Source: Candidatus Latescibacterota bacterium (GTDB lineage: Bacteria; Latescibacterota; UBA2968; UBA8231). Taken from it: DNA of 64,000 nt. The position numbers were made by a program, and so were the translations under genes. The stretch covers positions 4,800,001 through 4,864,000 of the forward strand of contig OZ244561.1 in NCBI GenBank assembly GCA_965217585.1, given 5' to 3'. How positions within the stretch are numbered: the first letter of the stretch is position 1; each line of letters starts with the position of its first letter. Below the pieces are notes generated by a model. That model saw only the letters and a program-made list of their open reading frames with translations. It did not search any database and was not told the DNA's origin. This document shows positions 3,168 to 21,273 of the stretch, piece after piece.

Positions 3168-3175
3168 GTTGGGGG

Positions 3176-5953
3176 CTATGATCGTTCGACTTGCACCTGA
3201 TCCTTCAGTTCGAGATCATCGAGAACCTGCCGTAGCTCGGTTTCCATGTTCTGGGCAAATTGCGACCGGACACTCACGGTAAATTCTATGCCGACGCTAA
3301 GGTCTTCCCCGGAGCGCAGCTTGGGCAGCATCTTGGTTCCTAGCCGGTTCCAGATTTCGGGAGGCACGGTGCCGGTAAGCCGAAGCGTTGTCTTTTGATT
3401 GTCTGTGTCTGGCGGGGGTTCGAGACCCGGACTAGGCTTAGACGCAGGCTCAGGCTCCGCACCAGCTTTAGGTTCGGGTTCCGTTTGCGGTGGGGGCGCA
3501 TTGGCCGTCGTCTGGAGTTGCTCGGCCTTGGCCTTGGTCACCAAGAAGACATTGGTTTCAAACGCTACTTCTTCCGTGCGGATCGGCTCCGCGTACCACA
3601 GCCGCCCGAAGCTACCATCGCTCCCGGTGCCGGATGCCAAGCCAAAATCTCCTCTCGACACGAACTCGACAATCTGCCGTTGAAGGATCGCGTCGGGGTC
3701 AATCAGCCGCGTCAATGCGCCGTTCAGAAAGCTCTGGCGCAGACTTGTGAGCGGCCAAGCGCCGGTGTCTTTGAACGCCGCCGGCCAGTGGCGATCAATG
3801 TAGCCCGCACCCACGTTCTCGTTGAGCAGGGCCTCGGATTTCAAGGCACTGATAATCCGTCCGCAGAGGGTTTCGCTGGCGCTCGCGTGGCCGGCCCCGA
3901 GGTCGATGATCTTGAGCCCATGCTTTTCCTGAGTATCCGCAAGCGCGACGAAGCGATAGCCGGCCCATACTTCGTCCTTGGCCGCGGTCTCCGCGTCCCG
4001 AACATGGGTCTGAATCTCGGCGCGGTCGGTGCGGTCGTATTCTGAGCCGAGGACGCCCTCGGACACCTCTTGCGATACGCGCTTCCAGGCGAGCCATAGC
4101 TCGACCTTATCGCGCAGTTCGCGCCCCGGTTTCCGCGCACACCACACCAGCGAACCTGGGTATAGCCGTGGCGAAGTGCCCCGCTCTTGCGTCCAATGAC
4201 CAATGCGCTCGACCACTTGGTTGCCGTTTATCCATTCCTGATCGGGGTCGAGGACGATTAGGGTGAGGCGCGGAGAATCTTGGACTGTGGTGCTGTCCTG
4301 TGGGAAGAAATTTACCGGCAGGGTTGCGCCGCGTTTGAACTCCTCCTCGACGAGTTTGCGGATCGCCGGCTTGATCTCTGTAGCCTCGTCGAGTGAAGCC
4401 CGTCGGTCGCTGACGACCTTGCGCAGTGTCGCTTGATGGTGAATGCGATAGCCGTCCGTGCCGACCGTGCGGATAAAGAACCCCGATCCTTCGATAGCTG
4501 TCGCCGCGCTGTCAATAGTCGTGGTCTCGACCTCGGGCTCGCCGAGCGCAAAGCGCAATTCCGGTAGATGGGCCACCTTGTCCACCTGTCCACCGGAGGA
4601 CTCGAACAGGATGGCCGTGCCTACCCGGCGGTGGATGTCGCGCAGCGCTCCCGTGGCGTCCGCATCTAGGGATCTGGCATGTGCCATCGGCCCGGCGAGG
4701 TCGGCGTCAATTGCCACGTCGAGCCGCGACTCGCCCAACTGGCCCAAGACCACGGCGCGAAATTCGGGCACGTCCAAAGGTGCCGACCCCAGCGTAATCA
4801 GCGATTCGGTTCGCGCCCTTGTGAACTGCTCGCGTGCGGCCCAAGAAATCCACTGCGCCAGCATGGCCAGCGCGCCTCGGGTTTGTTGGAACTGGGTGAG
4901 CGCACGCCACTTGCGCTGGAAGACCGAAAGGGTTGCCGGATGGAAGGGATAGCACGCCTCGAATCGCGCCCGCAGAAATTCTCTTGCTTTGGCCTCGGTC
5001 GTCGAGGTATCGACCGCTAGCCACTCGGTGGGTAGGCGAGCGGTGCGTTCAAAGCACCAGTCCGCGTAGGTTTTGGCGACGCGCTTGCGAATGCGCTCGT
5101 TGCCGAGATCCTCGAATAGCCGCCGGCGCACCACCTCGCTGATTTCGGATTCGTCATTGGCGATTAGGTCGCGGGCGACGCGGCGCACCACCTTGGTGAT
5201 CCGATCCTGCCACTGCTGATCCCAATCGGTCATCTCGACTTGGCTGCGCGGCAGGCTGATGACCGCAGCGGCCTGAGTGGTGCCGGTGACGGCGACGGTC
5301 AGGTTTTGTAGGAAGGCGTGGAAAGGCTCGGCCATGGGGCGATGGCGATTGACGAAGTTCAGGACTTCATCGAACAACAGCAGCACGGGCGCATCCGCAG
5401 CGGCGAATACATTGGCTAGTGCCTCGGTTCCCGGTGGTGTGGTCTGCGCGGCAGCACCGAGCGCAGCGACGCCCTTATCGCCGGCTAGTTGGCGTGCTAG
5501 GTCGATCCAAGGCGTTTCCTTGCCTTCCACAGGATCCCAGGCATTGCCGACGAAGACGCCGACGCGGGCGGGAGGAGCTTCAGCAATTCCCGCTTCGTTC
5601 AGGAGGTCCGCCACGCCGGGGAACTTAGCGGAGTCCGCGCCAGCATTGGCGATATGGTACAGGGAAGCCAGGGTATGCGTCTTGCCGCCGCCGAATTGGG
5701 TGACGAGCGTGAGGACTGGTGCTGTGTTCTCGGTCTTGCCGGAAAGACGACGGAGGACCATGCCGGCGTGTTCCTTCAGGGCGCGGGTGAAGCAGGTGCG
5801 CGAGAAAAATTGCGCTGGATCGCGGTAATCCACGGGGGCGGTTTGGGCTACGATCTGCTCAAGGGCGATGGCGAACTCGTCCGGGCTGAACGAGCGGCCT
5901 TCGCGGACTTCTTTACGGAGCGTTACGATTTTATACCAAGGGTCGAGGGCCAT
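3176..5953 (-). CDS. DUF499 family AAA+ ATPase of restriction-like defence operon
   Basis: Walker A TQFGGGKTH, Walker B LLLFDE, YPFHP motif; same operon as the DUF1156 methylase and SNF2 helicase. Confidence 0.88.
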   Translation of the reverse strand: MALDPWYKIVTLRKEVREGRSFSPDEFAIALEQIVAQTAPVDYRDPAQFFSRTCFTRALKEHAGMVLRRLSGKTENTAPVLTLVTQFGGGKTHTLASLYHIANAGADSAKFPGVADLLNEAGIAEAPPARVGVFVGNAWDPVEGKETPWIDLARQLAGDKGVAALGAAAQTTPPGTEALANVFAAADAPVLLLFDEVLNFVNRHRPMAEPFHAFLQNLTVAVTGTTQAAAVISLPRSQVEMTDWDQQWQDRITKVVRRVARDLIANDESEISEVVRRRLFEDLGNERIRKRVAKTYADWCFERTARLPTEWLAVDTSTTEAKAREFLRARFEACYPFHPATLSVFQRKWRALTQFQQTRGALAMLAQWISWAAREQFTRARTESLITLGSAPLDVPEFRAVVLGQLGESRLDVAIDADLAGPMAHARSLDADATGALRDIHRRVGTAILFESSGGQVDKVAHLPELRFALGEPEVETTTIDSAATAIEGSGFFIRTVGTDGYRIHHQATLRKVVSDRRASLDEATEIKPAIRKLVEEEFKRGATLPVNFFPQDSTTVQDSPRLTLIVLDPDQEWINGNQVVERIGHWTQERGTSPRLYPGSLVWCARKPGRELRDKVELWLAWKRVSQEVSEGVLGSEYDRTDRAEIQTHVRDAETAAKDEVWAGYRFVALADTQEKHGLKIIDLGAGHASASETLCGRIISALKSEALLNENVGAGYIDRHWPAAFKDTGAWPLTSLRQSFLNGALTRLIDPDAILQRQIVEFVSRGDFGLASGTGSDGSFGRLWYAEPIRTEEVAFETNVFLVTKAKAEQLQTTANAPPPQTEPEPKAGAEPEPASKPSPGLEPPPDTDNQKTTLRLTGTVPPEIWNRLGTKMLPKLRSGEDLSVGIEFTVSVRSQFAQNMETELRQVLDDLELKDQVQVERS

Positions 5954-5996
5954 TCTGTATCTCTCTTTGATCGGTTATCTACGCGGTGGTTCAATC

Positions 5997-6623
5997 TCAT
6001 CTCCTTAGCGACTCCAAGCTCGTTACCCAGTCGTTGAATCGAGGACATTCAGCGCGAATCTTGTCCAAGCCTATCTCCATTGCCAGAAGGGGACCGTCAA
6101 CTTTCTTCTCGTACCGGGGTATAACCTTCTTAATCCGTTTGCTCGGAGCCGTGTTCTCGTTGTCATTGATGTCTTCGGGCGTCGGGAATTGTGAACGGAT
6201 GTTTCGCAGGGCCTGTATGGATGTATGCGATACACCGATCAACTTGGTAAAGGCATCCACATCAGAAAACAACAGCCCCTCAAACTCATGTCGTTGGACA
6301 TATGGGAATACTTTTTGGGGATGCCATAGGTGGTCGAGTTTCTGGCGAAGGTTTTCCTCCAATTCATCGACTGTTTTATTTCCTTTGCTACGAAACCCAT
6401 AGAAGTCAACGAGCGATGTCACGGCATCGAAGCGGTGGAGTAAGTGGGTCATTTCCGACACGAGTTGCTTCACCGAAACATTTCCACCGGTAGATCTGCC
6501 GCGGGCGCGGCCAAACAGAATCGGTGTCGGTTCGACTCCTCTTCCCCGTAAGTGATCTGCGAGAAAATGTTTGACAAATTCCTCTTCGGTTTGGCCTTCC
6601 ACCGATATGGCCAGTCGGATCAC
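5997..6623 (-). CDS. DUF4276 family protein (TOPRIM/RloB-like)
   Basis: GTG start overlapping the upstream TGA; VEGQTEEEF, LVDFYG, HEFEGLLFSD, ECPRF motifs. Confidence 0.82.
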   Translation of the reverse strand: MIRLAISVEGQTEEEFVKHFLADHLRGRGVEPTPILFGRARGRSTGGNVSVKQLVSEMTHLLHRFDAVTSLVDFYGFRSKGNKTVDELEENLRQKLDHLWHPQKVFPYVQRHEFEGLLFSDVDAFTKLIGVSHTSIQALRNIRSQFPTPEDINDNENTAPSKRIKKVIPRYEKKVDGPLLAMEIGLDKIRAECPRFNDWVTSLESLRR

Positions 6624-7777
6624 GGGCGTCCTCCGAGCAGGTTCTTCTGCCAAAGCTCGCCCGATGTGAAGTTGTCGTCGAGCCATACTTGATAGTCGTC
6701 CGGGGACAGTTTGCGAAACTCAGTACGACCGTCCTGTAGATCTAACACGAAAATTTCGTCGAGACCGAACTCATCAACCAACAAGGGCGATTGCGTTGCC
6801 ACAATGACCTGCCTCTCCTCGGCGAGGGACTTTATCATACCCCCAATCAAGGCGATGGCTGCTGGATGCAGGCCCAGTTCTGGCTCGTCCAACAGGAGTA
6901 CGTCGGGCAACATCTCGGGTGGTAGATTGAGCAGTGTCACCAAGGCAAAGAACCGTAGAGAGCCGTCGGACGTGAGGTGCGCGCCAAAGGTCTTGTCCGT
7001 TCCCTTGGCCTTCCACCTTAGCAGCACTTTTCCGTAGCTCTCCTCGATCTGAAAACGGTCGAAGACTGGCAAGACTCGGCTGATATGCTGACAGATCAGC
7101 TCATATCGCTTGATATTTTCTCGCTCCAACCGGTGGAGAACGGCGGCTAAGTTGCCCCCGTGGCTAAGAAGGTAGTTGTTGTCCTCAGCATCCCATCTCT
7201 TTTTGAAGTTCGACTCGTCAGATGTATCGTGAAATTGGTATACCGAGCATCTCCGCAGCCTATTGACAATGCGCTCGGCGGTAAGCGGATTGGCTTCGAG
7301 CCAGTCGAGGGAGTAGTGAGCCGAAGGCGAGGGAGGTTGTGTGGCTTCGACGATCTTCGCTTCCAAATGACCACTTCCGAGATAATACCAGGATGTCGGG
7401 GGATAGAGATCGTTGGGATCGACGAATCGGAATGCCTCCTCCGCGAATATGAAATGGTCGGGCTGAGCACGGGAAAGCATGAACCGATAGTCGTTACGGC
7501 CTTCATCGGTTCGCAATCTAACCTCTGCCTCTATGCGTGGCGTGCGTCGGTTCCCGCCATGTAATTGGTCATCGGCCCCTCCTCGGCTAGCGACGAACTC
7601 TGCGAGTCTGCGAGACCCGAGCATCCAGCTCAGCATTTCGAAGAAGCGAACAAAATTGGACTTGCCCGAGCCGTTGGCACCAATTAGGACCGCCGCCTTG
7701 GGAATTCCCGCAAGCTCGACATCGGCTAACGATCGGAAGCCCTGGATGCGGACGTATTCAATCCTTGTTAGTCCCAT
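6620..7777 (-). CDS. ABC-type ATPase (AAA_21/RloA-like)
   Basis: GANGSGKS, SDG signature, LLLDEPE, ATQSP; ATG at 7777 with AAGGA RBS. Confidence 0.88.
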   Translation of the reverse strand: MGLTRIEYVRIQGFRSLADVELAGIPKAAVLIGANGSGKSNFVRFFEMLSWMLGSRRLAEFVASRGGADDQLHGGNRRTPRIEAEVRLRTDEGRNDYRFMLSRAQPDHFIFAEEAFRFVDPNDLYPPTSWYYLGSGHLEAKIVEATQPPSPSAHYSLDWLEANPLTAERIVNRLRRCSVYQFHDTSDESNFKKRWDAEDNNYLLSHGGNLAAVLHRLERENIKRYELICQHISRVLPVFDRFQIEESYGKVLLRWKAKGTDKTFGAHLTSDGSLRFFALVTLLNLPPEMLPDVLLLDEPELGLHPAAIALIGGMIKSLAEERQVIVATQSPLLVDEFGLDEIFVLDLQDGRTEFRKLSPDDYQVWLDDNFTSGELWQKNLLGGRP

Positions 7778-7789
7778 CTCGTTCCTTTC

Positions 7790-7925
7790 ACCTCGGCACC
7801 GCCAACAACATGGCGTCGAGTAGGCGTTTTTCGTTGCAGCCTTGAGGGTAGAGTGCCGATAGGGCGTTGGCAAGGCGAAGGAAGTCGGGGCCGCGATCTT
7901 GCTCGGCACCGATCAGCGTCCGCAG
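7790..7925 (-). repeat. Diverged copy of the last ~45 codons of the DUF1156 gene (partner 8581..8716)
   Basis: 136-bp direct repeat, 7 mismatches by hand count; encodes LRTLIGAEQDRGPDFLRLANALSALYPQGCNEKRLLDAMLLAVPR followed by TGA. Confidence 0.95.
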
Positions 7926-7928
7926 CCT

Positions 7929-8285
7929 CTAAGGTGACGGCGGATGGGAAATGCGGATACGACCGTCGCGGATCGTGACAACCGCCTGTATTTCCAGCGC
8001 TTGGCGATGTCGCTCGAGTACCTCGGCGATCAAGGCAATGCGTCGCTCCGCCGGCACGTCTGGGAGGCGCACCAAGCCTGCATGCGGGACCTTTTGCACG
8101 TAGACAAGCTCTCCGAAGTCGGTATCGATCGTCACCAAAATTCTGCCATCGGCGGCAGCGCGTTCCAGTAGCGCCCGATCTCCCGGGTCGGCTCCAAGCT
8201 CACGGGCCTCGACCACGTCATGCCCCTGGTCGCGCAGCCATGCTGCCAGACGGTGGCCGGCACACCGATCTACTAGGAATCTCAC
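7929..8285 (-). CDS. DUF5615 PIN-like toxin (VapC45-like)
   Basis: MRFLVD, GHDV, D..LL..A, RILVTIDTDFG motifs. Confidence 0.88.
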   Translation of the reverse strand: MRFLVDRCAGHRLAAWLRDQGHDVVEARELGADPGDRALLERAAADGRILVTIDTDFGELVYVQKVPHAGLVRLPDVPAERRIALIAEVLERHRQALEIQAVVTIRDGRIRISHPPSP

Positions 8286-8533
8286 GAATCTGCAATCGAT
8301 ACGGCGGCCAGTGAATCTTTGGCGATAACTGCGTGCGCGTAGGCGGTACAGGCGCGAATGTCGTCCGGTTCTAGTTCGGGGTAATCCTCCAAAATGGCCT
8401 CCGTCGTTACGCCCTGCGTCATCAGACTCAGGATGAGTTCCACCGAAATTCGCATGTCGCGAATGATGGGCTTGCCACCAAAGACATCCGGGCGTGCGGT
8501 GATGCGCTTGAGCAATTGGGGATTAGTGGTCAT
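8282..8533 (-). CDS. DUF433 antitoxin
   Basis: RIT..PDVFGGKPIIRDMRISV, ILEDYPELEPDDIRAC; 4-bp overlap with the PIN gene. Confidence 0.92.
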   Translation of the reverse strand: MTTNPQLLKRITARPDVFGGKPIIRDMRISVELILSLMTQGVTTEAILEDYPELEPDDIRACTAYAHAVIAKDSLAAVSIADS

Positions 8534-8578
8534 GTCTCTCTCCGTGGTTATTACGTCCGACGTAAGTCTTCCGTCCGG

Positions 8579-11545
8579 CTACCTCGGCACCGCCAACAGC
8601 ATGGCGTCGAGTAGGCGTTTCTCGTTGCAGCCTTGAGGGTAGAGGGCGGATAGGGCGTTGGCAAGGCGGAGGAAGTCGGGGCCGCGATCTTGCTCGGCGT
8701 CGATCAGCGTCCGCAGTGCGTTGGCGTGACCGCTGGACTGGAGCAGCATGGCGGTGTGGACGCGGTCGAGGGTGGTGTCTCCAAGGGTCGCGGCGAGATG
8801 GTCGTCGGAGGCTTCGCCGTATCTCGGGCGTGGCTCCCGGACGAGAGTGGGTGCGCCGTCCTGCAAGTCGGGGAAGAGTGTCTGCTGCGAGCTGGTGTGC
8901 GGGTCGCTTTCGATGTAGTTGGCTGCGGCGGCAGCGCCGTCCTCGCCGAAGAGGTTCTTGGCGCGCTCGGACACTGGTAATAGGCGTACGACGCCCTTTT
9001 CTTGGCCGATGATGCGGTCGGTCCAGGTGTCGAGGTCAATGCCCATAGGCTGGGCGAAGCGGCGCACTACGTCGAAGGGGAGAGCAAATCCCGTGGCCGC
9101 TGCTTTGGCGACGGCTTCTTCGTCGGCCTCGTCTGTTTGTTCTTGATTCTCTGCAACAGGGGCTGTGCTCTGGAGCGTCCATAGGAAGAGCGCGGTTAGG
9201 CGGGCGTCCTCTTCCAGCGCGCCGGACAGGCCGTTGCGCGCTCGCGCTTCTGCGGTGCCGAGCACCTGTTGCAGCGCGGCGCGGCCGACTACCTCCCAGA
9301 CTTTCTCCAAATAATCGGGCAGGCCGATTATATCGCCCTCGGCGGTTTCGACGGCGCGGTAGCGGCTGAAGATTTCGAGCGCCGGGCCGATGCAGGCGAA
9401 GACCAGATCGGCACCTCGGATGCCCTCGCCCTGCAAGCGCTCGATCCAGTCAGCGACGCGGATCGGCAGTTCCCGCAGGACATCGGCCCAGTCGCCGATG
9501 GGGGCGTCTTCGGGACGTGGGCGGCAGATGAGGTGGATGCTGGTGGCGAGGGCGGCGGTGTCGCGTGCGTTGAGTCTGGACCCCATCTCGGTCGCAATCG
9601 GCCAGGAGCCGGTGATGGTCCAGCCGCCTTGGATCATGCCAGAGAGCAACGCCTCCCATCCCTCGGTGGTTTTGTGTGCGAAGACGACGGAGCCTACGCC
9701 ATCTTCTCTCAAAACCCGACGTCCCTCGGCGAAGGCTCGGGCCATAGCTCCTTCGTAGAATTCTTTATCCTTGGGTGCTCCATTAGCGTCTTTGACCTTC
9801 TCACACTGCACCGCTTCGCGGCTCTTGGGCGAAAGTACATTGTTCGCATCGAATGGGTCCCGTAGCAGCGGGTGGCTTGGTAGTGTGCGCTTGAGCCAGA
9901 CGAGGAAGAAGTCCGAGAGGTCAGCATAGGGTACAGCATCGTAGTAAGGAGGATCGGTGAACCAGACATCGGAGGCTTGATCGGGTAAAGGATGGTCAGT
10001 AGCATCAGCCGTTTGAACTTGACCGCCGCCACGGTTGACCGATGCATCAACCACGTCGGCAATCAGCACGAATCCACTTTTCCAGTTGCCTGGAGCCTCG
10101 GCTGTGATCACGACCTCTGCAAAGTCCCATACCATGGGGAGTGCCTGCCGGCCAAACGTATGCTGCATCTTTTCTGCCACGGCATTCCATCGAGTACACG
10201 ACATGTTGCTCATCGACACACGATTGAAAGCACAGGCCAATACCGATACCAATCCGGCTGTAGTTCCATTACGTACTGTGTCGAGCAACTCCACCAATGC
10301 CACCTTCTGCCGCGCCGTGAACAAGTCGCCGAAGGTCGTAATGCCGTATAAAGGGATCTGACTCCCAACAGCACGATGCGTGTCTTTTGTTGGAGCTGGT
10401 TCATCTGGCACCGGGCAAAGCCCCTGTTTACCTCCTCGCTCCCACTCGCCGAGTATATCCACCATCCGCTCCTGAGCCTTTCGCACCGCCTCGTAGTCCG
10501 CGTCTGTCGGCAGCCGATAGTGCCGCCCCGTCTGTCCAGACTTTATCGTCACCACCGCCGTCATCCGCGCCCCACCTGTCCGCCGCCCCTCCGCGTCAAA
10601 AATCACATCCGCGCCGCCCCGCTCAGCCGCAAGCTGCGCCCGCACTCGCTCCGGCGGTAGCACCGCGCCGCAGCACAGACAAGTCGCCCGCGCTCGCGTC
10701 ACCGTGCCGCCACGCACCTCTCTATCCGCCTTCGGCTCGAACACCTCAAACTCGACGCTCGGTGGCTCCCCTTCGGATCGCTCGACTCGATGCCGCAGCG
10801 CCCGCTTGCGCTTGGCCTTCTTGCACAGCCAAAATGAACGCATCAGCGGAATCTCCGCGCCGCAGTTGGGCGCTTCGCAGCGCACCGTCCGCGCCCACAA
10901 ATAGGCAATCGGCATCGCCCCGTCCGGGTCCTTGGGATACAGATCGGCCAACTCCTGCTCGGCCTGCCGCTTAATCTCGCCGCCGACCCGGCGCAGATCG
11001 TCGGCCAGCCCCGGCCCGTGCCGCGGAATGTCCTCCAGCATCACCTTGAGAATCAGGCAGGCCACCGGATTCAGATCGCTGGCGAACGCCTCGCAGCCCA
11101 GCCGCAATGCCTCCAGCGGAATCGAGCCACCGCCCGCAAACGGGTCCACCACAAGCGGCGGCTCCTCGCCATGCGCCGCCTTCACCAGCGCCCGACCCAC
11201 GTTGAGATGAGTGCGATCCGCAGCATTGTCCCAATTGGCGAAGTTGGCGATAAACGACAGCAACCCCTGTCGCAGTTCCGCGTCATTCGCCGGCGGTTGC
11301 CGCACCTCGCGCAGAATCTCCCGCGCTTGCTGCTTAAAGTCCTCCGGGCAGTGCGCGTCGCACGGGTCCGGCAGCAGCAACGCCAGCAACACTGCCCGCG
11401 ACGAAGCCAACGGCCGCCGCGCCCACCACAAGTGCAGCGTACTCGGATGCCCATGCCGAATCGACTTCTCCCGCGTCGCGTGCCGCGACACTTCGGCGAT
11501 GGGGAAATCCACTTCGGCCAGACGCTTGCATTCGCGGGGGATCAT
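8579..11545 (-). CDS. DUF1156 amino-DNA methyltransferase with Zn ribbon
   Basis: LHLWWARRPL, motif I DPFAGGG, Cys pairs (CEAPNC, CLCC), motif IV DPPYY. Confidence 0.92.
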   Translation of the reverse strand: MIPRECKRLAEVDFPIAEVSRHATREKSIRHGHPSTLHLWWARRPLASSRAVLLALLLPDPCDAHCPEDFKQQAREILREVRQPPANDAELRQGLLSFIANFANWDNAADRTHLNVGRALVKAAHGEEPPLVVDPFAGGGSIPLEALRLGCEAFASDLNPVACLILKVMLEDIPRHGPGLADDLRRVGGEIKRQAEQELADLYPKDPDGAMPIAYLWARTVRCEAPNCGAEIPLMRSFWLCKKAKRKRALRHRVERSEGEPPSVEFEVFEPKADREVRGGTVTRARATCLCCGAVLPPERVRAQLAAERGGADVIFDAEGRRTGGARMTAVVTIKSGQTGRHYRLPTDADYEAVRKAQERMVDILGEWERGGKQGLCPVPDEPAPTKDTHRAVGSQIPLYGITTFGDLFTARQKVALVELLDTVRNGTTAGLVSVLACAFNRVSMSNMSCTRWNAVAEKMQHTFGRQALPMVWDFAEVVITAEAPGNWKSGFVLIADVVDASVNRGGGQVQTADATDHPLPDQASDVWFTDPPYYDAVPYADLSDFFLVWLKRTLPSHPLLRDPFDANNVLSPKSREAVQCEKVKDANGAPKDKEFYEGAMARAFAEGRRVLREDGVGSVVFAHKTTEGWEALLSGMIQGGWTITGSWPIATEMGSRLNARDTAALATSIHLICRPRPEDAPIGDWADVLRELPIRVADWIERLQGEGIRGADLVFACIGPALEIFSRYRAVETAEGDIIGLPDYLEKVWEVVGRAALQQVLGTAEARARNGLSGALEEDARLTALFLWTLQSTAPVAENQEQTDEADEEAVAKAAATGFALPFDVVRRFAQPMGIDLDTWTDRIIGQEKGVVRLLPVSERAKNLFGEDGAAAAANYIESDPHTSSQQTLFPDLQDGAPTLVREPRPRYGEASDDHLAATLGDTTLDRVHTAMLLQSSGHANALRTLIDAEQDRGPDFLRLANALSALYPQGCNEKRLLDAMLLAVPR
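11520..11544 (-). repeat. 25-bp sequence at the DUF1156 gene start, repeated at 15190..15214 and 16500..16524
   Basis: AGACGCTTGCATTCGCGGGGGATCA on the + strand. Confidence 0.95.
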
Positions 11546-13518: not shown

Positions 13519-13525
13519 TGTGTCG

Positions 13526-13738: not shown

Positions 13739-13755
13739 TGAATTCTCCTTTCTAT

Positions 13756-13891: not shown

Positions 13892-13932
13892 GCATGGTGT
13901 TCTCTTTTCCTTGGTTACTCTGTTGGTCCTTT

Positions 13933-15156
13933 TTACTTTTTGCCTTTCCCGGCTTTGCCTCGCGGCCTTTTCGCCCGGGTTTTTGTCTCTTGTTTCGGTT
14001 TCCCTACCGTCAGTTCGCCACGCAAGGTCGGAGCCCCTGCCCTTATCTCGGCACGCAAGTTTACCACCTCCCGCGTGCGGTCGATTTCCGCCGCCAAGAT
14101 CGCCTCGTCCGGCAAAGCAGTTTTGTATTCGGCAGCCATCACCTTGTTCGGCAATCCATCGAGCGCGTACCGGGCAACGGCCTCATCCTTCTGGGCACAC
14201 AGAATTAGCCCGACCGGCGGGTTCTCATCCTCGTGCATCCAGTGTTCACGGGCGTAGTTGAGATAGAGGTGCATCTGCCCGGCGTCGGCGTGGGTGAATT
14301 TGCCTACCTTTAGATCGATGACCACCAAGCAGCGCAGACGCCGGTGGAAGAATAGCAGATCTACCCGGTACCACTCATCGCCGACGCGAAGCCGCCTCTG
14401 CCGACCCATGAAGCAGAAATCCCCACCTAGCTCTAGGAGGAATGTCTCCAAGCGGTCAATCAGCGATTCTTCAAGGTCGCTTTCGGAGTACTCGTCCTTG
14501 AGATCGAGGAATTCGAGGACGAATGGGTCCTTGATTCCCTCTTCGGGCAGGACGCGATCCTCGGGCCGCGCCTTCCGCCCCCGGGTGAGCATGACGGCCT
14601 TGTTCTTTGAAAGAGCAGTGCGTTCATAGAACTGGGAATTAATTTGCCGGTCGAGTTGGCGAACCGACCAACCTCCGCGCAGCGCCTCGGTTTCGTAGAA
14701 TTCACGGGCGTGCGTGTTATTGACCGATAGTAGCCGCACATAGGCGGACCAAGGAAGCGGAAAGTGCGAGGCGACGCTGGCCAGCGAAGATTCTCCAGAC
14801 GCTGTCTGGAGATTTCCGCTGGATTCTGATTCTGCAGACGCTGTCTGCGGAATCGGCCATGCGAGGTAGAACGCCTTCATGTTCCAGACATTGCGGATCG
14901 AGAATCCACGGCCGTAATGGGCGGAGAGGTCAGTGGCAAGCCGTTCGACAATCTCCTCTCCATAGTCCGCTCGCTGTTCGCCTGACTGCTCAAACTCCAC
15001 GATGTGCCGTCCGATCATCCAATACGCGGCGGTCATAACGGCATTCACTGACCGAGCGGCCGACTGCCTAGCGGCGTCAACAATCCTCGACACATCGCCA
15101 AAGATGGCTTGGTACTGAGCATCCGGCTTGTCGTCTGTGAGTACCGGCTTTTTCAT
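13933..15156 (-). CDS. yhcG: YhcG/DUF1016 PD-(D/E)XK nuclease
   Basis: YWMIGRHIVE, LPWSAY, KDPFVLEFL, FLLELG, VDLLF..VVIDLK, GQMHLY. Confidence 0.9.
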   Translation of the reverse strand: MKKPVLTDDKPDAQYQAIFGDVSRIVDAARQSAARSVNAVMTAAYWMIGRHIVEFEQSGEQRADYGEEIVERLATDLSAHYGRGFSIRNVWNMKAFYLAWPIPQTASAESESSGNLQTASGESSLASVASHFPLPWSAYVRLLSVNNTHAREFYETEALRGGWSVRQLDRQINSQFYERTALSKNKAVMLTRGRKARPEDRVLPEEGIKDPFVLEFLDLKDEYSESDLEESLIDRLETFLLELGGDFCFMGRQRRLRVGDEWYRVDLLFFHRRLRCLVVIDLKVGKFTHADAGQMHLYLNYAREHWMHEDENPPVGLILCAQKDEAVARYALDGLPNKVMAAEYKTALPDEAILAAEIDRTREVVNLRAEIRAGAPTLRGELTVGKPKQETKTRAKRPRGKAGKGKK

Positions 15157-15189
15157 GATCTGCTCTGCTCCCCGTAGAGGGTTTTAGCG

Positions 15190-15214
15190 AGACGCTTGCA
15201 TTCGCGGGGGATCA
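15190..15214 (-). repeat. Identical copy of the DUF1156 start sequence overlapping the HEPN stop codon
   Basis: 25/25 identity with 11520..11544; reads (V)IPRECKRLA. Confidence 0.95.
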
Positions 15215-15604
15215 CAGTATGCGTTCCTCGGCCCAGCGGATGACGACTTCGGCGATGGCTAGCGCTTCCCGATACTCCTGTTCGGTGACTGTCTGGTTCA
15301 TAGGGTAGCGAGTAACTGTGGCGAATCGAGTGAGCTTTCTGGCCTGTCCGACGGCGTCTGGGATCGCTTCGCCTGCTTCCTTGAGCAGGGAAAGTAATCG
15401 GGCCAAATCATGTACGTAGGGGAAGTCGATGTCGCGCTTAATCATCAACGCCTTGATGGCTTTCTCGGCTGCTTGCTGGGCCTCAAAGCACAGGTCTTCT
15501 AGGTAGGCTTGTGGTACGCGGTTTTTCGCCATCGCCAGACTGCTTCTGGCGCGATTCATCCATTCGCGAGGATCGTCGGCGGGAAAACGCTCAGGTTCCT
15601 TCAT
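15212..15604 (-). CDS. HEPN domain protein (MNT-HEPN pair)
   Basis: LCFEAQQAAEKAIKA, HDLARL, TRYP motifs. Confidence 0.9.
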   Translation of the reverse strand: MKEPERFPADDPREWMNRARSSLAMAKNRVPQAYLEDLCFEAQQAAEKAIKALMIKRDIDFPYVHDLARLLSLLKEAGEAIPDAVGQARKLTRFATVTRYPMNQTVTEQEYREALAIAEVVIRWAEERIL

Positions 15605-15917
15605 ATACGACCCTGCCTTCTTGCAATGCCGGCTTGACAATCACCGCGTGGCTATCCTTATACCGCTCTACATCGTCGGGCGTGACGACAACAGCATCGA
15701 CGGCTGCGCCGACGCCATCGAGATTCATATAGATATCGCCCATAAGTTCAAGCGGGTTCTCACATTCTTTGATGATGAGCAGATCGACGTCGCTGTGGCG
15801 GTTCATCTCGCCGCGAGCAGCAGACCCGAAGAGGATGATCTTCTCCGGTTGAGCCACCTCTACAATGCGCCGGATGATGTCGTCCAATGTTTGTTGGTCA
15901 AGCATCCCCTTGTTCAT
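15591..15917 (-). CDS. Minimal nucleotidyltransferase (MNT) antitoxin
   Basis: IILFGSAARG..SDVDLLII; overlaps the HEPN gene. Confidence 0.92.
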   Translation of the reverse strand: MNKGMLDQQTLDDIIRRIVEVAQPEKIILFGSAARGEMNRHSDVDLLIIKECENPLELMGDIYMNLDGVGAAVDAVVVTPDDVERYKDSHAVIVKPALQEGRVVYEGT

Positions 15918-15949
15918 GGCTTCTCTCCTAGCAGCAAGCCGCGCCTGTT

Positions 15950-16086
15950 CTTGACCGATAGCAGTCGCACATAGATGGACTAAGGAAGTGAAAAGCGTGA
16001 GGCGACGCTGGCCAGAGAAGATCCGACAGACAGTGTCTGGCGAATCTCGTCACCTGCCAATTTTCAGACGGTGTCTGAAAAATTCG
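15950..16086 (-). pseudogene. Internal fragment of a second yhcG/DUF1016 gene
   Basis: Aligns by eye with 14720..14855 (QT.S repeats, SSLASVAS.F, YVRLLSV); contains a TAG where the intact copy has TGG. Confidence 0.8.
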
Positions 16087-16131
16087 TTCGGCTGACCGCC
16101 AAGCAACGCCGCCGCCGATAGAAACCGACTG

Positions 16132-16398
16132 TCACTCACCGATCCAAGGATTGACGACTTCAACGCCGGTATTCCGATATGCGTAGTGCCTAGACTCCGG
16201 CAACTCGACCCCATGCTCGGGGCCAAAATACCGCCTGAAAGCCTCGGAAGGCGTTGCGCGGTGCTCAGCCTTGGCGCGCTTCTCGCGGATCAGACGGCGG
16301 ATGAACTCTTCCATTGACACGCCGACTTGGCGCGCTTCCCGTTTGAGCCAGGCTTTGTCCGCCGGGTCGATATCGCGGACAGTGACAGTGGAACTCAT
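16132..16398 (-). CDS. FitA-like RHH antitoxin fused to the C-terminal stub of a PIN toxin
   Basis: TVTVRDID..K..L..EA...GVSMEE..R; ends NTGVEVVNPW, typical of FitB/VapC C-termini. Confidence 0.75.
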   Translation of the reverse strand: MSSTVTVRDIDPADKAWLKREARQVGVSMEEFIRRLIREKRAKAEHRATPSEAFRRYFGPEHGVELPESRHYAYRNTGVEVVNPWIGE

Positions 16399-16446
16399 CG
16401 CGGCCTCCTTATCAGGTATTGCGTTTGATCAACAAAAAAGCCTAAT

Positions 16447-16465
16447 GACAGCAAAATATGCTGTC
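16447..16465. promoter_or_regulatory. Palindrome upstream of the RHH antitoxin, probable autoregulatory operator
   Basis: GACAGCA-AAATA-TGCTGTC perfect 7-bp inverted repeat about 50 bp upstream of the start. Confidence 0.5.
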
Positions 16466-16499
16466 GAGTACCCTGATCGGCGAATCCAGAACACAGGAA

Positions 16500-16524
16500 A
16501 GACGCTTGCATTCGCCGGGGATCA
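16500..16524 (-). repeat. Copy of the DUF1156 start sequence overlapping the AlbA_2 gene stop codon
   Basis: 24/25 identity with 11520..11544. Confidence 0.93.
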
Positions 16525-17760
16525 CGCTGGCTTCGCTTCCTTCCATAGGCGCACGGTGAAGCGGTACTCCTCCGCGATCAGGTCCGGCTCGGTGCCGTTG
16601 TGGGCCAACATGCCGGGAATGATTTTGTTCCGAATGCCCATGCCACGTGCATCCACATAGCCGTAGTCGCGCATCACGTTGACTAAGGTCTGGTTGCGGG
16701 CGTAGCGCAGCCCCAATCGCATCCCAGCGGGCGTCACCGTGTTGGGCAGGCGGCCCGGGCTGACCACTTCGAGGCGATCCGAGTAGATGACGAGCATGAT
16801 GTCAGTCCCCACGATGCTGTAATCGCGGTGTACAAGGGCATTGACCACGGCCTCGCGCACCACGTCTTCGGGAAATTCCCAGCGGTCGATCCGACGCGCC
16901 CCTTCCAAATAGGCAGTGGGCGTCGTATTGCGCCGCACGAAATCCCACGCCTTATCTACAAGACCCAGCTTGACAAGCTCCCCGTCCTCGGGGTCGCAGA
17001 GTGGAACCATGGGGCCTTTGAGGTCCTCGTCCGCACGGGTTGCATAATCCGGCTCCGGGCCTAAGTAGCAAATAGCTCGAATGCCCGATTGCGGAAGAAA
17101 CCGCTTGGGGTTCTTGCCAAACAGAAGCATTCCGTCGATGGTTGCGACCATCCGGCCCGCTGCTGGGGTCGCAAGTTCGAGGTTTTGCAGCAGCCTTTGC
17201 CACTGATCGACATCGTTTGTCGGCGGAACGCTGCCGCCTAGAACGCGGCCAAAATAGTCGCGCAAATGCCGCTGGTTGAGCGAGTCGAGCACCGTGCCGG
17301 GGACGGGCTTTAAGCCGTAACGGAACAATCCTCCCTGTCGGTAGAGCCGTTCTTCTTCCTCGCGGCCTGCGGTACGCGTAGTCGTTCCGACGCGCACCTG
17401 AGTAACCCAATTTTCCCCGCGCTTGGCCTTGTAAGGCTTATCCGGCGCATCTCTGGGAAGAGATATAACGCCGACCGTTTTCCCGTTTCCCCAGTCCACG
17501 GTCTCCCAAAAGGGAATCGTTGCCGGCAAGACGTGGGTACGCGCTGTCTCCATCACCCATTCCTCCACCTTGCGCGGCTCTCGCATGAGACCGGTAACCG
17601 AGCCATTGTCCTCGACGCCGAGGAAAATGTACCCGCCTTCCAGATTGAGCAGAGCTGCAATTTCCGTGGCCAGTCGTTCCGGGCGAAGGTCAGCGCGCTT
17701 GAACTCCACGCCAGAGTTCTCGCCGCTGCGGATCAGTTCGATCAAATCGGCTTTGTTCAT
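16522..17760 (-). CDS. Schlafen/AlbA_2 domain + HATPase_c_4 (RecG C-terminal-like) protein
   Basis: GENSGVEFK, A..N.EGG.I.LGVED, REAVVNALVHRDY, SPG.LP, RN, GMGI. Confidence 0.88.
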   Translation of the reverse strand: MNKADLIELIRSGENSGVEFKRADLRPERLATEIAALLNLEGGYIFLGVEDNGSVTGLMREPRKVEEWVMETARTHVLPATIPFWETVDWGNGKTVGVISLPRDAPDKPYKAKRGENWVTQVRVGTTTRTAGREEEERLYRQGGLFRYGLKPVPGTVLDSLNQRHLRDYFGRVLGGSVPPTNDVDQWQRLLQNLELATPAAGRMVATIDGMLLFGKNPKRFLPQSGIRAICYLGPEPDYATRADEDLKGPMVPLCDPEDGELVKLGLVDKAWDFVRRNTTPTAYLEGARRIDRWEFPEDVVREAVVNALVHRDYSIVGTDIMLVIYSDRLEVVSPGRLPNTVTPAGMRLGLRYARNQTLVNVMRDYGYVDARGMGIRNKIIPGMLAHNGTEPDLIAEEYRFTVRLWKEAKPA

Positions 17761-17814
17761 GGTTGCCTCAGAAGCCGTACTACCAGCGGCACCCCACATT
17801 CCATTTTGGCCTTC

Positions 17815-20800
17815 TCATTCATCTCGTGTCTTCCATCTTCCGGATGTCTTCTGGCCTTCCCGAATTTCCATCGGCTGCTTGAGAGTGTCAACGCTCAGAT
17901 AGTAGTGGGCGACCTTGATGACCTCGTGCCACGGGAACCGGGCCGGGTCTTTGACCGGCTCCTGAAGCTCTGGGGTACTGGCGCAGTTGGTCACCACGTA
18001 GAGCCAGTAGCAGTCGCGGCGATCCTCGGCGACGCGACGCTCGTTGGGCGTCAGCAGAATGCTGCCGGTGGCGGCGGCGAGACCTTTAATCTCGATCAGA
18101 CGCAACTCGCCGGACGCTGGATCGAGGCTAGTTATATCGTAGCCAAGATTCTTCTCGTGGACATCTTCGACCTGACGACCTTGCGAAATCTCGTACTCCA
18201 TGACCACTCGCATCGCCGTCATCTCAGTTTCGGGATGTGGACGCAGACGCCGGACATCGAGGGTGTCGCGTTCGGGATGGGGCAGGATCAAGACGCTGGC
18301 GAGCCGCTCAACTCCCTGCAAGGTCAGCGCCCGCTGCCGCTCAAATTCATCGCGCCGACGGTCGCGGCGCGCCATCACCTCGGCATGGCGGGCTTCGGCC
18401 TGCGCCAAGCGGCCCTCGGCACCGATTACGTTGTTATCCCTCTCCTCGGCGGCACGGCCAATCTCCTCATCGGTCCGCTGTAGAACCTCCGTCAAGGACA
18501 GTTTGACGTGATCGGCAATGCGCTCAACTTCGGCCAGACGCTCGGCGCGAACCTCGTTGATAAAAGCGACCAAGGCGTTTTCATTGAGCCAAGCGGTCGC
18601 CTCTGGTAGCGCGGCTACCGGCGGCAGATCGCCCGGAGCGGTGGTGGGGCTGAGATTGCCAAGGGCATCCGGCTCGCGGAGACAGGGAGATCCGTCATTG
18701 GTCAACTCCACGGTGAACAACCGTTCGTGAATGACGTGTCCGAGACCATCCACGACCCGCGCCCGGTAGAAATCGAGACGCGCCGGTGCTGCGTGCGCTA
18801 GGGAATGGAAACAGGCTCCCTTGGCAAAGGCATCCTGGCCGAGATTGAGACTGTGCCGGCGCAGGGCCTCAAACAGGGGATGCCCTGGGGTGACCCATTC
18901 GAGGTTGTGCTCCTCTGCTGTGTCGCGGTCCGTTGACAAGCGCGGATAGCGCATCGCTAGCTCTGGGAGTTTCCAGTCTGGATTGTGCTCGTATTCCTTC
19001 AATTTGGGTGGTATCCGCCCTGGATCGAAGGTATGCGCCAAGTGGCCCACCGGCTTCAGAGTTAGGGCCGCGTGTTGGGCGCACTCCGCGATGAATCGCG
19101 CAATGGTTTCGGGTACGACGCGCCGCTCTTGGGCCTTGGCTCGGCGCTCGACGAGCATGTCGAGGTTGAGCTTTTTAGAGGCCAAGCCTTCCAGTGCCGT
19201 CTGGCAGATGGCCCGGAAGTGGCCTTCATCCACGTCCTGCAAAAGCCGCTCTTCAAGGTCAGCGTCCCCCAACTTTTCCGCGTAGTAGTCCCGTAGCACG
19301 CGCTCCACGTGGGCGGACGGCAAGACTTCGCCGACCACGTTGAATACCGAGTCGTCATCGAGGGCGTCGCGAATCTCCTGGAGCTTGTCCAACAACCGCT
19401 GGAGCACCCGCCCCTCAATGGTGTTGGTTGCCACGAAGTTGAAGATCAGGCAATCGCGCCGCTGGCCGTAGCGGTGAATGCGGCCCATGCGCTGTTCGAG
19501 CCGGTTCGGATTCCAGGGGATGTCGTAGTTGAAGAGGATGTGGCAGCACTGAAGGTTGATGCCTTCCCCAGCCGCCTCGGTAGCCACCAAAACTTGGATG
19601 GCACCTTCGCGGAACTGCTGTTCGGTATAGAGCCGGCTTCCTGGTTCGTCGCGTGAGCCGGGCTTCATGCCGCCGTGGATGCAGCCGACGCTGAAGCCCC
19701 AGTCTCGCAAGCACTCCATCAGGTGGTCGAGGGTGTCCTTGAACTCGGTGAAGAGCAGCAGTTGCTGATCGGGCCGGTCGAAGAACCCCTCCTCCTGCAT
19801 GATTTTGCGGAGATGTCCGAGTTTCGCTTGGCTGCCCGAGTCTTCGGCGGCCTTGGCCTCTTCGGCAAGCTGGAGAAGTTCGCTGATCTCTTCGCGTATC
19901 TGCTCGGCGTTGCCAGCCAGCGTGATAGCCTCCAGCATCTCCTCTAAGCGCTCGCGCTCGGCATCTTCCAATTCCTCCAGCTCTTCTAGGTCGGGAAGGT
20001 CCGGCGGTGCAGTCCGCACCAACTCCTGGGCGCGCTTGAGTCCCTCCTCCAGACGCCGGGCGCGGTTTTCGAGCGACCGCCGCATAGCGTAGGTGCTGGA
20101 GGCGAGACGCCGCTGGTACAGCGACATCAGGAAACCGACCGCCCGAGCACGCGGGTTGTCGCCCTGCGCGGCGGCGCGAGCGCTCTGCCGTTTGACAAAC
20201 CGCGTGATCTTTTGGTAAAGCTCAAGCTCTGGACCATCTATAGCGAAGTCCGCGGTGCGTGGGATGCGCTTGGTGAAAACAGGCTTCGCAGTCCACGTTC
20301 CGTCCGTCTGGCGCTCCGGGAAGTACACCATCGCTTCCTTGGTGCGCCGCAGGTAAAAAGGCGCTCGCCTCCGTTCCATAGCCTCGCGGATTGAACTCAC
20401 ATCGGCGTAGGCATCCTGATCGAGCAGTTGCAGAAACAGCGTGAAATTCTGCGGATCGCCCTTGTGGGGCGTGGCGGTCAGCAGCAGTACGTGATCGGCG
20501 CTGTCGCGCAGCAATTCTCCCAGCCGGTAGCGCTGGCTCTTGTGGGTCTCGTCGCGCGCCGACATGCGGTGTGCCTCATCGACAATCACCAAATCCCAAC
20601 GCACCTGTTGCAGGCCGGGCAAGATCTCGGTGCGCTTGGCGAGGTCGAGCGAGGTGATGATCTGCTTTTGCTCCAGCCACTGGTTGACACCGAATTGATC
20701 GCGGATGTCGCTGCCTTTTAACACTAGGAACTTCTCGTCGAACTTTTCCTTGAGCTCACGCTGCCACTGGAACGTCAGGTTCGCGGGGCAGACGACGAGT

Positions 20801-21273
20801 ACCTGTTCGATGAGGCCCCGGAGCTTCAACTCGCGGATCAGAAGGCCGGCCATGATAGTCTTGCCCGCACCCGCATCGTCGGCGAGCAAGAAGCGCACGG
20901 TGGGCAGCTTGAGGAGGTGCTCGTACACCGCTTCGAGCTGGTGCGGTAGGGGATCTACGCGCGAGATGGAAAGCCCGAAATAGGGATCGAACTCGTAGGC
21001 GATGCCGAGCGCATAGGCTTGGAGGCCGATTCGCAAAAGCCGTCCATCGCCATTGTAGGAAAGAGCGGCCTCGGCGATGGTCAGGTTGGAAATGTCATCG
21101 GCAGTGAGCGTGACCTGACGGAACTGCTCGGACCGCTGGCCGACGAGGCCCGCCTCCACGTAATCAGTACCGTTCGCGCGAACGGTTACCACTCGCATTG
21201 GCTCGCTAAACAGCGGGCCGGTCAGAACCTGTCCTTCGCGGATGGCGGGTTCAACTACCACTTCACCACTCAA
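17815..21273 (-). CDS. SNF2-family helicase with C-terminal DUF3883 (NO VEIN) nuclease-like domain; alternative GTG start at 21261
   Basis: LLADDAGAGKT, DEAH, TATPH, EGINLQ, EQRMGRIHR; C-terminal GYDITS..IEIKG. Confidence 0.93.
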   Translation of the reverse strand: MSGEVVVEPAIREGQVLTGPLFSEPMRVVTVRANGTDYVEAGLVGQRSEQFRQVTLTADDISNLTIAEAALSYNGDGRLLRIGLQAYALGIAYEFDPYFGLSISRVDPLPHQLEAVYEHLLKLPTVRFLLADDAGAGKTIMAGLLIRELKLRGLIEQVLVVCPANLTFQWQRELKEKFDEKFLVLKGSDIRDQFGVNQWLEQKQIITSLDLAKRTEILPGLQQVRWDLVIVDEAHRMSARDETHKSQRYRLGELLRDSADHVLLLTATPHKGDPQNFTLFLQLLDQDAYADVSSIREAMERRRAPFYLRRTKEAMVYFPERQTDGTWTAKPVFTKRIPRTADFAIDGPELELYQKITRFVKRQSARAAAQGDNPRARAVGFLMSLYQRRLASSTYAMRRSLENRARRLEEGLKRAQELVRTAPPDLPDLEELEELEDAERERLEEMLEAITLAGNAEQIREEISELLQLAEEAKAAEDSGSQAKLGHLRKIMQEEGFFDRPDQQLLLFTEFKDTLDHLMECLRDWGFSVGCIHGGMKPGSRDEPGSRLYTEQQFREGAIQVLVATEAAGEGINLQCCHILFNYDIPWNPNRLEQRMGRIHRYGQRRDCLIFNFVATNTIEGRVLQRLLDKLQEIRDALDDDSVFNVVGEVLPSAHVERVLRDYYAEKLGDADLEERLLQDVDEGHFRAICQTALEGLASKKLNLDMLVERRAKAQERRVVPETIARFIAECAQHAALTLKPVGHLAHTFDPGRIPPKLKEYEHNPDWKLPELAMRYPRLSTDRDTAEEHNLEWVTPGHPLFEALRRHSLNLGQDAFAKGACFHSLAHAAPARLDFYRARVVDGLGHVIHERLFTVELTNDGSPCLREPDALGNLSPTTAPGDLPPVAALPEATAWLNENALVAFINEVRAERLAEVERIADHVKLSLTEVLQRTDEEIGRAAEERDNNVIGAEGRLAQAEARHAEVMARRDRRRDEFERQRALTLQGVERLASVLILPHPERDTLDVRRLRPHPETEMTAMRVVMEYEISQGRQVEDVHEKNLGYDITSLDPASGELRLIEIKGLAAATGSILLTPNERRVAEDRRDCYWLYVVTNCASTPELQEPVKDPARFPWHEVIKVAHYYLSVDTLKQPMEIREGQKTSGRWKTRDE

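Follow-up and report, generated by a model that had tools for sequence, protein, structure and literature searches.

Hma systems were named by the authors of PADLOC, who reported embedded genes in 931 of 1,485 of them and defined HEC candidates (10.1101/2024.01.29.577857). HEC-01, an 'Hma-embedded candidate', gave no protection in the published assay; the survey of Payne et al. admitted no more than three embedded genes in each gap, and what embedding signifies 'remains to be explored', only a 'genomic sink' having been suggested (10.1101/2024.01.29.577857). HmaA of Halomonas alone was reported by Liu et al. to defend against T4 through its nuclease domain, and the operon was termed a hotspot for defence-gene insertion (PMC11232893). 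By the account of two groups, nested defence genes are present in some two thirds of Hma operons and have been used for finding new systems. A comparative paper of 2026 renamed the systems Type-1 DUF499-centred BREX-related systems and assigned standalone DUF3780 to Type 2 (PMC12839542), the system studied as MANTIS (10.64898/2026.09.23.753747). Statements made here on published sources, above all on what they do not mention, apply to the accessible parts of their text. The present work deals with a heavily loaded member of this known system, found at positions 3176-21273 of a 64,000-nucleotide (nt) stretch of a Candidatus Latescibacterota genome (hereafter the window). We propose, with a probability of roughly 0.7, that its array of embedded genes was built by recombination between divergent alleles of the same operon with no dedicated recombinase. 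The embedding is known; what is added here is a signature of core-gene scars across 20 related loci. An initial annotation of the window had seen in the operon a platform for stacked cassettes, an idea which is partly supported, although the embedding of defence genes in Hma operons had already been published.

Coordinates are window positions, and all genes of the operon lie on the minus strand. The list of open reading frames (ORFs), Pfam and PADLOC together give 14 closely spaced ORFs in 3176-21273, three core genes and eleven accessory ones, all co-oriented, in agreement with the initial annotation. The core genes stand on a single strand in the order A-B-C, each once and intact. By this content the region is identified as an intact Hma operon, alias a Type-1 DUF499-centred BREX-related system, with a predicted antiphage and host-methylating function. 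It resembles the published Hma operons in the three core genes, their order and strand, and in the co-oriented defence genes between them, HEC-01 included; it is unlike them in carrying seven and four genes per gap, against the maximum of three surveyed, and in scars of core-gene ends, which are not mentioned there. Slot 1, between hmaA and hmaB, holds seven ORFs (AlbA_2/HATPase_c_4, RHH, MNT, HEPN, YhcG, KTSC, OLD) and slot 2, between hmaB and hmaC, holds four (DUF433, DUF5615/PIN-like, HEC-01A, HEC-01B). They form about six modules, AlbA_2, MNT-HEPN, YhcG, KTSC-OLD, DUF433-DUF5615 and HEC-01AB, and an orphan RHH gene. The GC content is 0.50-0.56 in the accessory stretches vs 0.60-0.67 in the core genes and flanks. 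Housekeeping genes border the operon, with DUF4432 at one end and a short-chain dehydrogenase (SDR) and an FAD oxidase at the other. With 'scar' denoting an extra copy of a core-gene end at a cassette border, the features read as follows in the direction of transcription.

17815-21273, minus strand: hmaA, core gene 1 (Pfam SNF2-rel_dom, Helicase_C, NOV_C (residues 1017-1103); PADLOC HmaA 1e-169, residues 11-1095)
16522-17799, minus strand: AlbA_2 (Schlafen-like) plus HATPase_c_4 protein (Pfam)
16500-16525, minus strand: hmaB 5' scar 1, first ~26 nt detectable, then the RHH leader
16132-16398, minus strand: RHH antitoxin-like protein (Pfam FitA-like_RHH)
15940-16043, minus strand: remnant of a second, decayed YhcG gene, upstream of MNT (104 nt, 82% to 14709-14812, E 1e-22)
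15591-15917, minus strand: MNT nucleotidyltransferase (Pfam Polbeta/NTP_transf_2; PADLOC PDC-S09)
15212-15640, minus strand: HEPN protein (Pfam HEPN 2e-28)
15183-15215, minus strand: hmaB 5' scar 2, nt 1-33, then the YhcG leader (junction J1)
13933-15156, minus strand: YhcG/DUF1016 PD-(D/E)xK nuclease family protein (Pfam YhcG_C 6e-58, DUF1016_N; PADLOC PDC-S02 2e-136)
13756-13891, minus strand: hmaB 5' scar 3, nt 34-112, internal deletion, nt 358-391; runs into KTSC
13526-13738, minus strand: KTSC-domain protein (Pfam KTSC 2e-25; own ATG at residue 52 of ORF 13526-13891)
11542-13518, minus strand: OLD-family ABC ATPase plus TOPRIM nuclease (Pfam AAA_15, OLD-like_TOPRIM; PADLOC Old 7e-56)
8579-11545, minus strand: hmaB, core gene 2, intact (Pfam DUF1156 7e-23; PADLOC HmaB 3e-116)
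8282-8533, minus strand: DUF433 antitoxin-like protein (Pfam DUF433 4e-22)
7929-8285, minus strand: DUF5615/PIN-like protein (Pfam DUF5615 9e-19, PIN_10)
7788-7926, minus strand: hmaB 3' scar, last 136 nt plus TGA stop, then the HEC-01A ribosome-binding site and start
6620-7777, minus strand: HEC-01A ABC ATPase (PADLOC HEC-01A 3e-115; Pfam AAA_21)
5997-6686, minus strand: HEC-01B (DUF4276) (Pfam DUF4276 2e-49; PADLOC HEC-01B 7e-66)
3176-5953, minus strand: hmaC, DUF499 ATPase, core gene 3 (Pfam DUF499 6e-13; PADLOC HmaC 2e-94, residues 1-846)

The repeats of the window were obtained by self-blastn over 26 kb. The 3' end of hmaB at 8581-8716 recurs at 7790-7925 (136 nt, 95%, E 2e-56). Of its 5' part, 11434-11512 recurs at 13813-13891 (79 nt, 84%, E 3e-17), 11155-11188 at 13756-13789 (34 nt, 88%, E 3e-5), and the start, 11517-11544, at both 15187-15214 (96%, E 7e-6) and 16497-16524 (E 3e-4). 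Each of these copies is placed exactly at a gene junction. The hmaB 5' copies that the initial annotation had seen at 16500, 15190 and 13756-13891, and the 3' copy at 7790-7925, were all confirmed, and the self-comparison added one repeat that it had not listed, 14709-14812 within YhcG matching 15940-16043. The stop of the AlbA_2 gene overlaps the start codon of scar 1 (GTGA) and that of HEPN the start codon of scar 2; the stop of OLD likewise overlaps the start codon of the intact hmaB (ATGA). Scar 3 is 84% identical to the hmaB of the window and 90% identical to that of a related locus, L055. No exact direct repeat in the operon exceeds 29 nt, and the copies have diverged by 4-18%.

Two ORFs run out of scars into cassette genes. 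The ORF 13526-13891 is read as an hmaB remnant continued into KTSC, which starts at its own ATG. The longest HEC-01A ORF, 6620-7909, has its start within the hmaB 3' scar, in a different frame, and its family match begins at residue 48. It is called over-extended because the hmaB 3' copy is directly followed by the HEC-01A ribosome-binding site and ATG; the start of the ATPase is most likely the ATG at 7777, which this ribosome-binding site precedes. The layout of HEC-01, an ABC ATPase (A) followed by a DUF4276/TOPRIM-like protein (B), is matched.

A scan of species-representative genomes with HmaB gave 70 related loci (labelled L001-L070), 19 of them titled Candidatus Latescibacterota and many lying in multi-Mb records titled 'chromosome'. 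For a census of scars, each of hmaA, hmaB and hmaC was represented, for every locus, by a first, a middle and a last segment of 240 nt; these segments were compared with the 70 loci and the window, and matches outside the resident genes were counted. The raw extra sites numbered 4 for the first, 0 for the middle and 11 for the last segment of hmaA; 26, 2 and 15, respectively, for hmaB; and 6, 0 and 1 for hmaC. These were curated by inspection, which dropped pieces of resident genes (fragmented or truncated residents), pieces at locus edges and the whole second hmaB of L027, and two pieces of one scar in L068 were merged. The rows dropped were 4 of 4 hmaA-first, 6 of 11 hmaA-last, 2 of 26 hmaB-first, both hmaB-middle, 1 of 15 hmaB-last, 3 of 6 hmaC-first and the single hmaC-last. 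Curation leaves 45 scars, carried by the window and 20 of the 70 loci; 5 of the scars come from the hmaA 3' end, 23 from the hmaB 5' end, 14 from the hmaB 3' end and 3 from the hmaC 5' end. Every one is a slot-facing end: in the 70 loci and the window, no curated scar derives from an outward-facing end or a gene middle. An independent census with 40-residue tiles gave the same profile.

Of the 19 Latescibacterota-titled loci, 12 carry scars; so do 8 of the other 51, which are titled after different taxa or after none, the titles including Dehalococcoidia, Rokubacteria, NC10, Rhodothermales, Terriglobales, Thermodesulfobacteriota and Acidobacteriota. They are present in 10 records titled 'chromosome', of 3.7-6.6 Mb. 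Nearly all retain the natural junction with the adjoining cassette: 22 of the 23 hmaB 5' scars begin at the start codon and overlap the stop of the upstream gene, and 13 of the 14 hmaB 3' scars reach the stop codon and continue into the natural leader of the next gene. Their lengths vary, 5' scars measuring 26-252 nt and 3' scars 30-189 nt. In L069 an hmaB 5' scar is fused directly to an hmaA 3' scar. A tree-like reading of the 139-nt 3' ends was discarded, as these are too short and too conserved (76-99%) to group the scars.

Several scar junctions are shared between species while their neighbours differ. Five sources, the window, L002, L011, L044 and L070, have an identical J1, in which hmaB nt 1-33 pass into the YhcG leader; to its left stands AlbA_2 in L002 and HEPN in the other four. 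The junction from AlbA_2 through ~40 nt of hmaB to the RHH leader is common to the window, L004, L005 and L044, and that from the DUF5615 stop to the last 136 nt of hmaB is common to the window, L002, L004 and L034. To the right of this DUF5615-linked 3' scar stands HEC-01A in the window, a DUF433-like gene in L002 and another ABC ATPase in L004. Every one of them keeps a junction that is seen in other places behind an intact hmaB, and the scar's stop codon (TGA or TAG) switches with the right neighbour. Since one scar has different neighbours, crossovers within scars are suggested. The simplest way to account for one breakpoint with several natural partners would be either crossover within the scar or a deletion between direct scar copies, and a deletion between the two short 5' copies of the window would yield the AlbA_2/scar-YhcG join of L002.

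Alignments in independent assemblies, including multi-Mb 'chromosome' records, span 15 of the 18 junctions of the window. The remaining three all belong to scar 3 (YhcG to scar, the internal deletion, and scar to KTSC) and are found in no other locus. The left border of KTSC-OLD therefore appears to be specific to the window, and KTSC-OLD appears to be a lineage-specific addition. The YhcG gene of L002 matches, at its 3' end, the bases that directly precede the MNT start, and the junction of YhcG fragment and MNT is also present in L001 and L032. Within 15918-16398, the stretch from RHH to MNT holds the decayed YhcG gene, whose 3' end provides the leader of MNT.

The synteny DUF4432-hmaA...hmaC-SDR is kept in 10 relatives, and the operon is judged to occupy a conserved chromosomal place. 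Empty slots are rare: of the measurable loci, 5 of 53 have an empty slot 1 and 3 of 52 an empty slot 2. The slots of the window measure 6,270 and 2,626 nt and are equalled or exceeded in 2 of 53 and 18 of 52 loci, the size of slot 1 in relatives being limited by the 10-kb flank. The initial annotation had taken the core genes for recombination anchors beside which cassettes were stacked, and this holds to the extent that every cassette stands alone beside an intact hmaB in other genomes. MNT-HEPN ends exactly at an intact hmaB start in 10 other loci, AlbA_2 adjoins an intact hmaB in L069, YhcG does so in L015, L040, L041 and L050, and KTSC-OLD adjoins hmaB in L038 and L039. The latter two, distant taxa (66-68% nt identity), are the only fetched loci with KTSC-OLD, which is absent from the other Latescibacterota-titled loci. 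The RHH gene has no toxin partner in the window; its homologue in L004 is followed by a PIN gene. The 83 slot ORFs without a match to a window protein, from 17 loci, belong mostly to defence-type families or are unmatched in Pfam; the families include an ABC ATPase with PIN, ThsB-TIR, SIR2-STAND, kinase-ORC, a methylase, GmrSD-AlbA_2 and others.

Cassettes and core genes differ in their relatedness to those of the window. In L004 the identity is 84% for hmaB and 83% for hmaC but 95-97% for DUF433, DUF5615 and RHH, while in L002 it is 93% for hmaB but 75% for MNT and 70% for HEPN. L032 is a mosaic, with 93/51/90% along the length of hmaB (51% at residues 290-505) and 96/79% along hmaA. Gene order also varies among close relatives, L002 having YhcG before MNT-HEPN; the invariant order that would have spoken against stacking was thus not found. 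The order AlbA2-RHH-...-MNT-HEPN-YhcG recurs in L004, L005 and L044.

Some modules lie outside the operon. L011 has, at 18406-21476 downstream of hmaC, the series AlbA_2/scar-MNT-HEPN/scar-YhcG fragment-DUF433-DUF5615, and L033 has MNT-HEPN downstream of hmaC at 17841-18540. Two operons are broken. In L070 (4760-12716), residue 275 of YhcG is fused to residue 807 of HmaB, and hmaA and hmaC carry internal deletions; in L008 (1682-21265), hmaA, hmaB and hmaC are truncated and slot 2 holds an IS4/5 transposase.

The recombinational origin proposed above would proceed in three steps. Homologous pairing within a core gene would anchor DNA of a foreign or duplicated allele. The other end would then be joined non-homologously, so that the new cassette comes to stand beside another and does not replace it, and a short slot-facing core-gene end would be left as a by-product, a scar attached to the cassette that it formerly bordered. 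Finally, the scars (26-250 nt) together with the core genes would provide homology for later swaps and direct-repeat deletions. What we infer is this route, with which the polarity of the scars, their variable breakpoints and the lack of a recombinase agree, and the part of the scars as crossover sites or homology arms. The modules would come from different alleles and not from local duplication, because the identities of cassettes and core genes are discordant, the core genes are mosaic, scar 3 is nearer to the hmaB of L055, and the GC content of the cassettes is lower.

The second step may be taken in two ways, which fit equally well and give the same product. Homology-facilitated illegitimate recombination, as put forward in the initial annotation, is one of them; in the other, a whole second copy of the locus would enter and the redundant core genes would then be deleted. 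Intermediates of the latter kind are seen among the relatives. L027 has two complete hmaB genes in tandem between hmaA and hmaC (6472-12976), 70-71% identical to the HmaB of the window. In L068 (17531-20327) hmaC is followed by another, degraded copy of the locus, with fragments of a dehydrogenase and of DUF4432, the start and the final ~70 nt of hmaA, AlbA_2 bearing an hmaB 5' scar, and an HEC-01B fragment; this copy ends with a complete dehydrogenase gene. The first hmaB of L027 is perhaps broken, since its alignment falls into two pieces (residues 1-126 and 130-988). The further claim that cassettes are added rather than swapped stands as far as addition goes, but swapping and deletion occur as well, and much of the array is inherited.

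Several observations weigh against this proposal. Fifty of the 70 loci have no detectable scar though nearly all carry embedded genes; either scars are not required for embedding or they decay, and clean replacement or decay must be common. At hmaB nt 33-40 lie the ends of eleven short 5' scars belonging to four junction types, a clustering that purely random breakpoints do not predict. The YhcG block (leader, gene and 41-nt trailer; 13756-15215) is bracketed by hmaB nt 1-33 and nt 34-112, two parts that complement each other to a single gene end, and looks like a simple insertion at hmaB nt 33/34 without target duplication and not like a one-sided join. Most junctions of the window seem to be inherited, and few of the stacking events recent. 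The comparators are all metagenome-assembled genomes. On finished plasmids, where the best HmaB matches are at most 44% identical, 214 records had a match, and the two Planktothrix plasmid loci examined among them carry embedded genes and no copies of core-gene ends.

Some of the findings would be expected from an old inherited array that has only undergone differential loss, its scars stemming from a few ancient local duplications with no continuing addition. The junctions labelled J1, J2 and J3 and the DUF5615-to-scar junction are common to several species, the order of AlbA2 to YhcG is repeated in three relatives, and many cassettes of the relatives are truncated. We consider such an origin unlikely nonetheless, as it accounts poorly for the different order in L002, for one scar junction with three right neighbours, for the discordant identities and mosaic core genes, for KTSC-OLD being in no other Latescibacterota-titled locus, for scars in loci outside the Latescibacterota titles, and for a scar 3 that is nearer to the hmaB of L055 than to that of its own operon. 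The clustering at nt 33-40, the clean appearance of the YhcG insertion and the common orientation of all cassettes would also suit an integron-like, site-specific system with att-like sites at the hmaB ends and an unrecognised recombinase encoded elsewhere. Against it, the other scars are 30-252 nt long, and those at the hmaA 3' and hmaC 5' ends differ in sequence. A selected site at the gene ends was looked for and rejected, third-position identity being 58-69% at the ends and 45-70% inside. No inverted repeat lies at a junction among the 25 longest of the 42 listed. As the initial annotation had noted, no integrase is visible, with none in 44 ORFs (19 + 25) scanned across the window and none in the 83 otherwise unmatched slot ORFs of 17 relatives, which gave one insertion sequence (IS) transposase in Pfam; nor did a fixed site emerge. 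A site-specific system is therefore held to be highly improbable.

An assembly artefact, in which single-cassette strain variants were stitched into a chimera at the repeated hmaB ends, would explain why the three junctions of scar 3 have no counterpart in other loci and why, among the fetched loci, KTSC-OLD is otherwise confined to distant taxa. The exact gene order of the window is known from the assembly alone and is to that extent unconfirmed. Yet exact repeats of at most 29 nt in copies diverged by 4-18% are poor substrates for graph misjoins, most of the junctions were assembled independently, and like scars are found in the 'chromosome' records. Moreover, a chimera at a shared repeat would swap cassettes and not create scar-to-leader joins that exist as real sequence. 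We regard an artefact as highly improbable.

The nearest parallel to recombination between alleles is found in the effector-immunity arrays of V. cholerae's type VI secretion system (T6SS), which likewise show a conserved anchor gene, an illegitimate other end and an old module kept with a remnant of the anchor (PMC5361080, PMC8189183). The authors of these studies described later homologous recombination as reshuffling the arrays and likened them to an integron without integrase, and they cited the 'orphan' arrays of Rhs and contact-dependent inhibition loci (C-terminal displacement) as following the same logic (PMC5361080, PMC8189183). The corresponding trait, anchor-gene remnants beside retained modules, is present here in the 45 scars of slot-facing ends. 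The T6SS and Rhs arrays differ in growing on one side, at one polymorphic toxin gene, with immunity genes kept, whereas the Hma operon would grow in two internal gaps, on either side of hmaB and also at hmaA and hmaC, and retains whole defence modules. Integrons are alike in having co-oriented, promoterless-looking cassettes in series behind a conserved platform; the window is unlike them in that no IntI-type integrase and no attC-like structured sites were found, and in its variable breakpoints. PrrC in the EcoprrI type I restriction operon and BrxU in BREX are likewise nested second defence genes, proposed to be a back-up (10.1101/2024.01.29.577857); they are single embedded genes, for which neither a stacked array nor core-end scars are described there.

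For embedding, the Hma papers cited here offer no mechanism in their accessible text. The word 'recombination' does not occur in the accessible text of the Payne preprint or of PMC12839542 and occurs once, in a figure legend, in that of PMC11232893, from which 'repeat' is absent. A published account of core-end scars or of the route of embedding was not found in these texts or in wider literature searches, the preprint supplements being a place that may hold relevant locus maps. The scars offer a testable account of the nesting, of the co-orientation and of the translational linkage to the core genes. Extra slot-facing gene ends are a simple signature, which could delimit cassettes, order events and find mobile defence modules, possibly in any multi-gene immune operon, and they link the turnover of immune genes to the displacement arrays of interbacterial toxin loci. 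It is tempting, though doubtful, to go further and regard the scars as portable attachment sites that need no recombinase, a cassette travelling with 30-250 nt of hmaB, hmaA or hmaC. If this were true, the general recombination machinery could insert, swap and delete cassettes at any related operon, restriction-like operons would be RecA-driven analogues of integrons for immune genes, and the same logic would account for embedded genes in type I restriction operons, BREX and DISARM.

As to the core proteins, HmaA has the helicase motifs GAGKT at residue 135 and DEAH at residue 232, and its C-terminal NOV_C/DUF3883 region is a predicted PD-(D/E)xK-type nuclease domain. HmaB is a predicted N6-adenine DNA methyltransferase with an N-terminal DUF1156; it has VVDPFAGGG at residue 132 and DPPY at residue 531, which we take to be methylase motifs I and IV. 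In HmaC, the canonical GxxxxGK[ST] was not found by a simple pattern search. All three core proteins can be aligned end to end with those of the relatives, HmaB over residues 1-988. In 30-residue windows across 18 alleles, HmaB residues 421-510 (10015-10284) are hypervariable, with a mean pairwise identity of 30-34%, and the same alleles are 51-97% identical outside this region, which is probably a target-recognition insert swapped between alleles. Among the cassettes, MNT and HEPN are classed by their families as a pair of toxin-antitoxin type.

MANTIS/Gao_RL is similar in its DUF499 ATPase, its N6-adenine methylase with an inserted target-recognition domain and its helicase-nuclease (10.64898/2026.09.23.753747). 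Type 2 has a standalone DUF3780 and a PLD-type nuclease-helicase (PMC12839542), whereas the window has neither and carries instead an SNF2 helicase with a PD-(D/E)xK-type end. The initial annotation had held DUF3780 to be usual for operons of the present kind; it is in fact a mark of the Type-2 relative. Pfam gave no standalone DUF3780 gene in 19 ORFs of the window or in the 83 slot ORFs of relatives, an absence that is explained because DUF3780 belongs to Type-2 BREX-related systems.

A scan for promoters and terminators over 3000-22600 was uninformative, with 3 promoter-like sites vs 6.4 expected and 13 terminator-like sites vs 17.4 expected. No tRNA gene was found in the whole window, and an Rfam scan of 1-26000 gave no match, the presence of an attC model in Rfam not having been checked. 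The sole mobility gene found in the window is an IS-type transposase (32731-33924; DDE_Tnp_1 and DDE_Tnp_1_assoc), ~11 kb from the operon. Elsewhere the window encodes two DUF6785-DUF6784 proteins (37840-39783 and 49916-51955) and two FG-GAP/ASPIC-UnbV repeat proteins (24244-25851 and 54186-55865). The repeats of 150-258 nt at 24402-25544, mostly spaced by 165 nt, are the FG-GAP units of the first of these repeat proteins.

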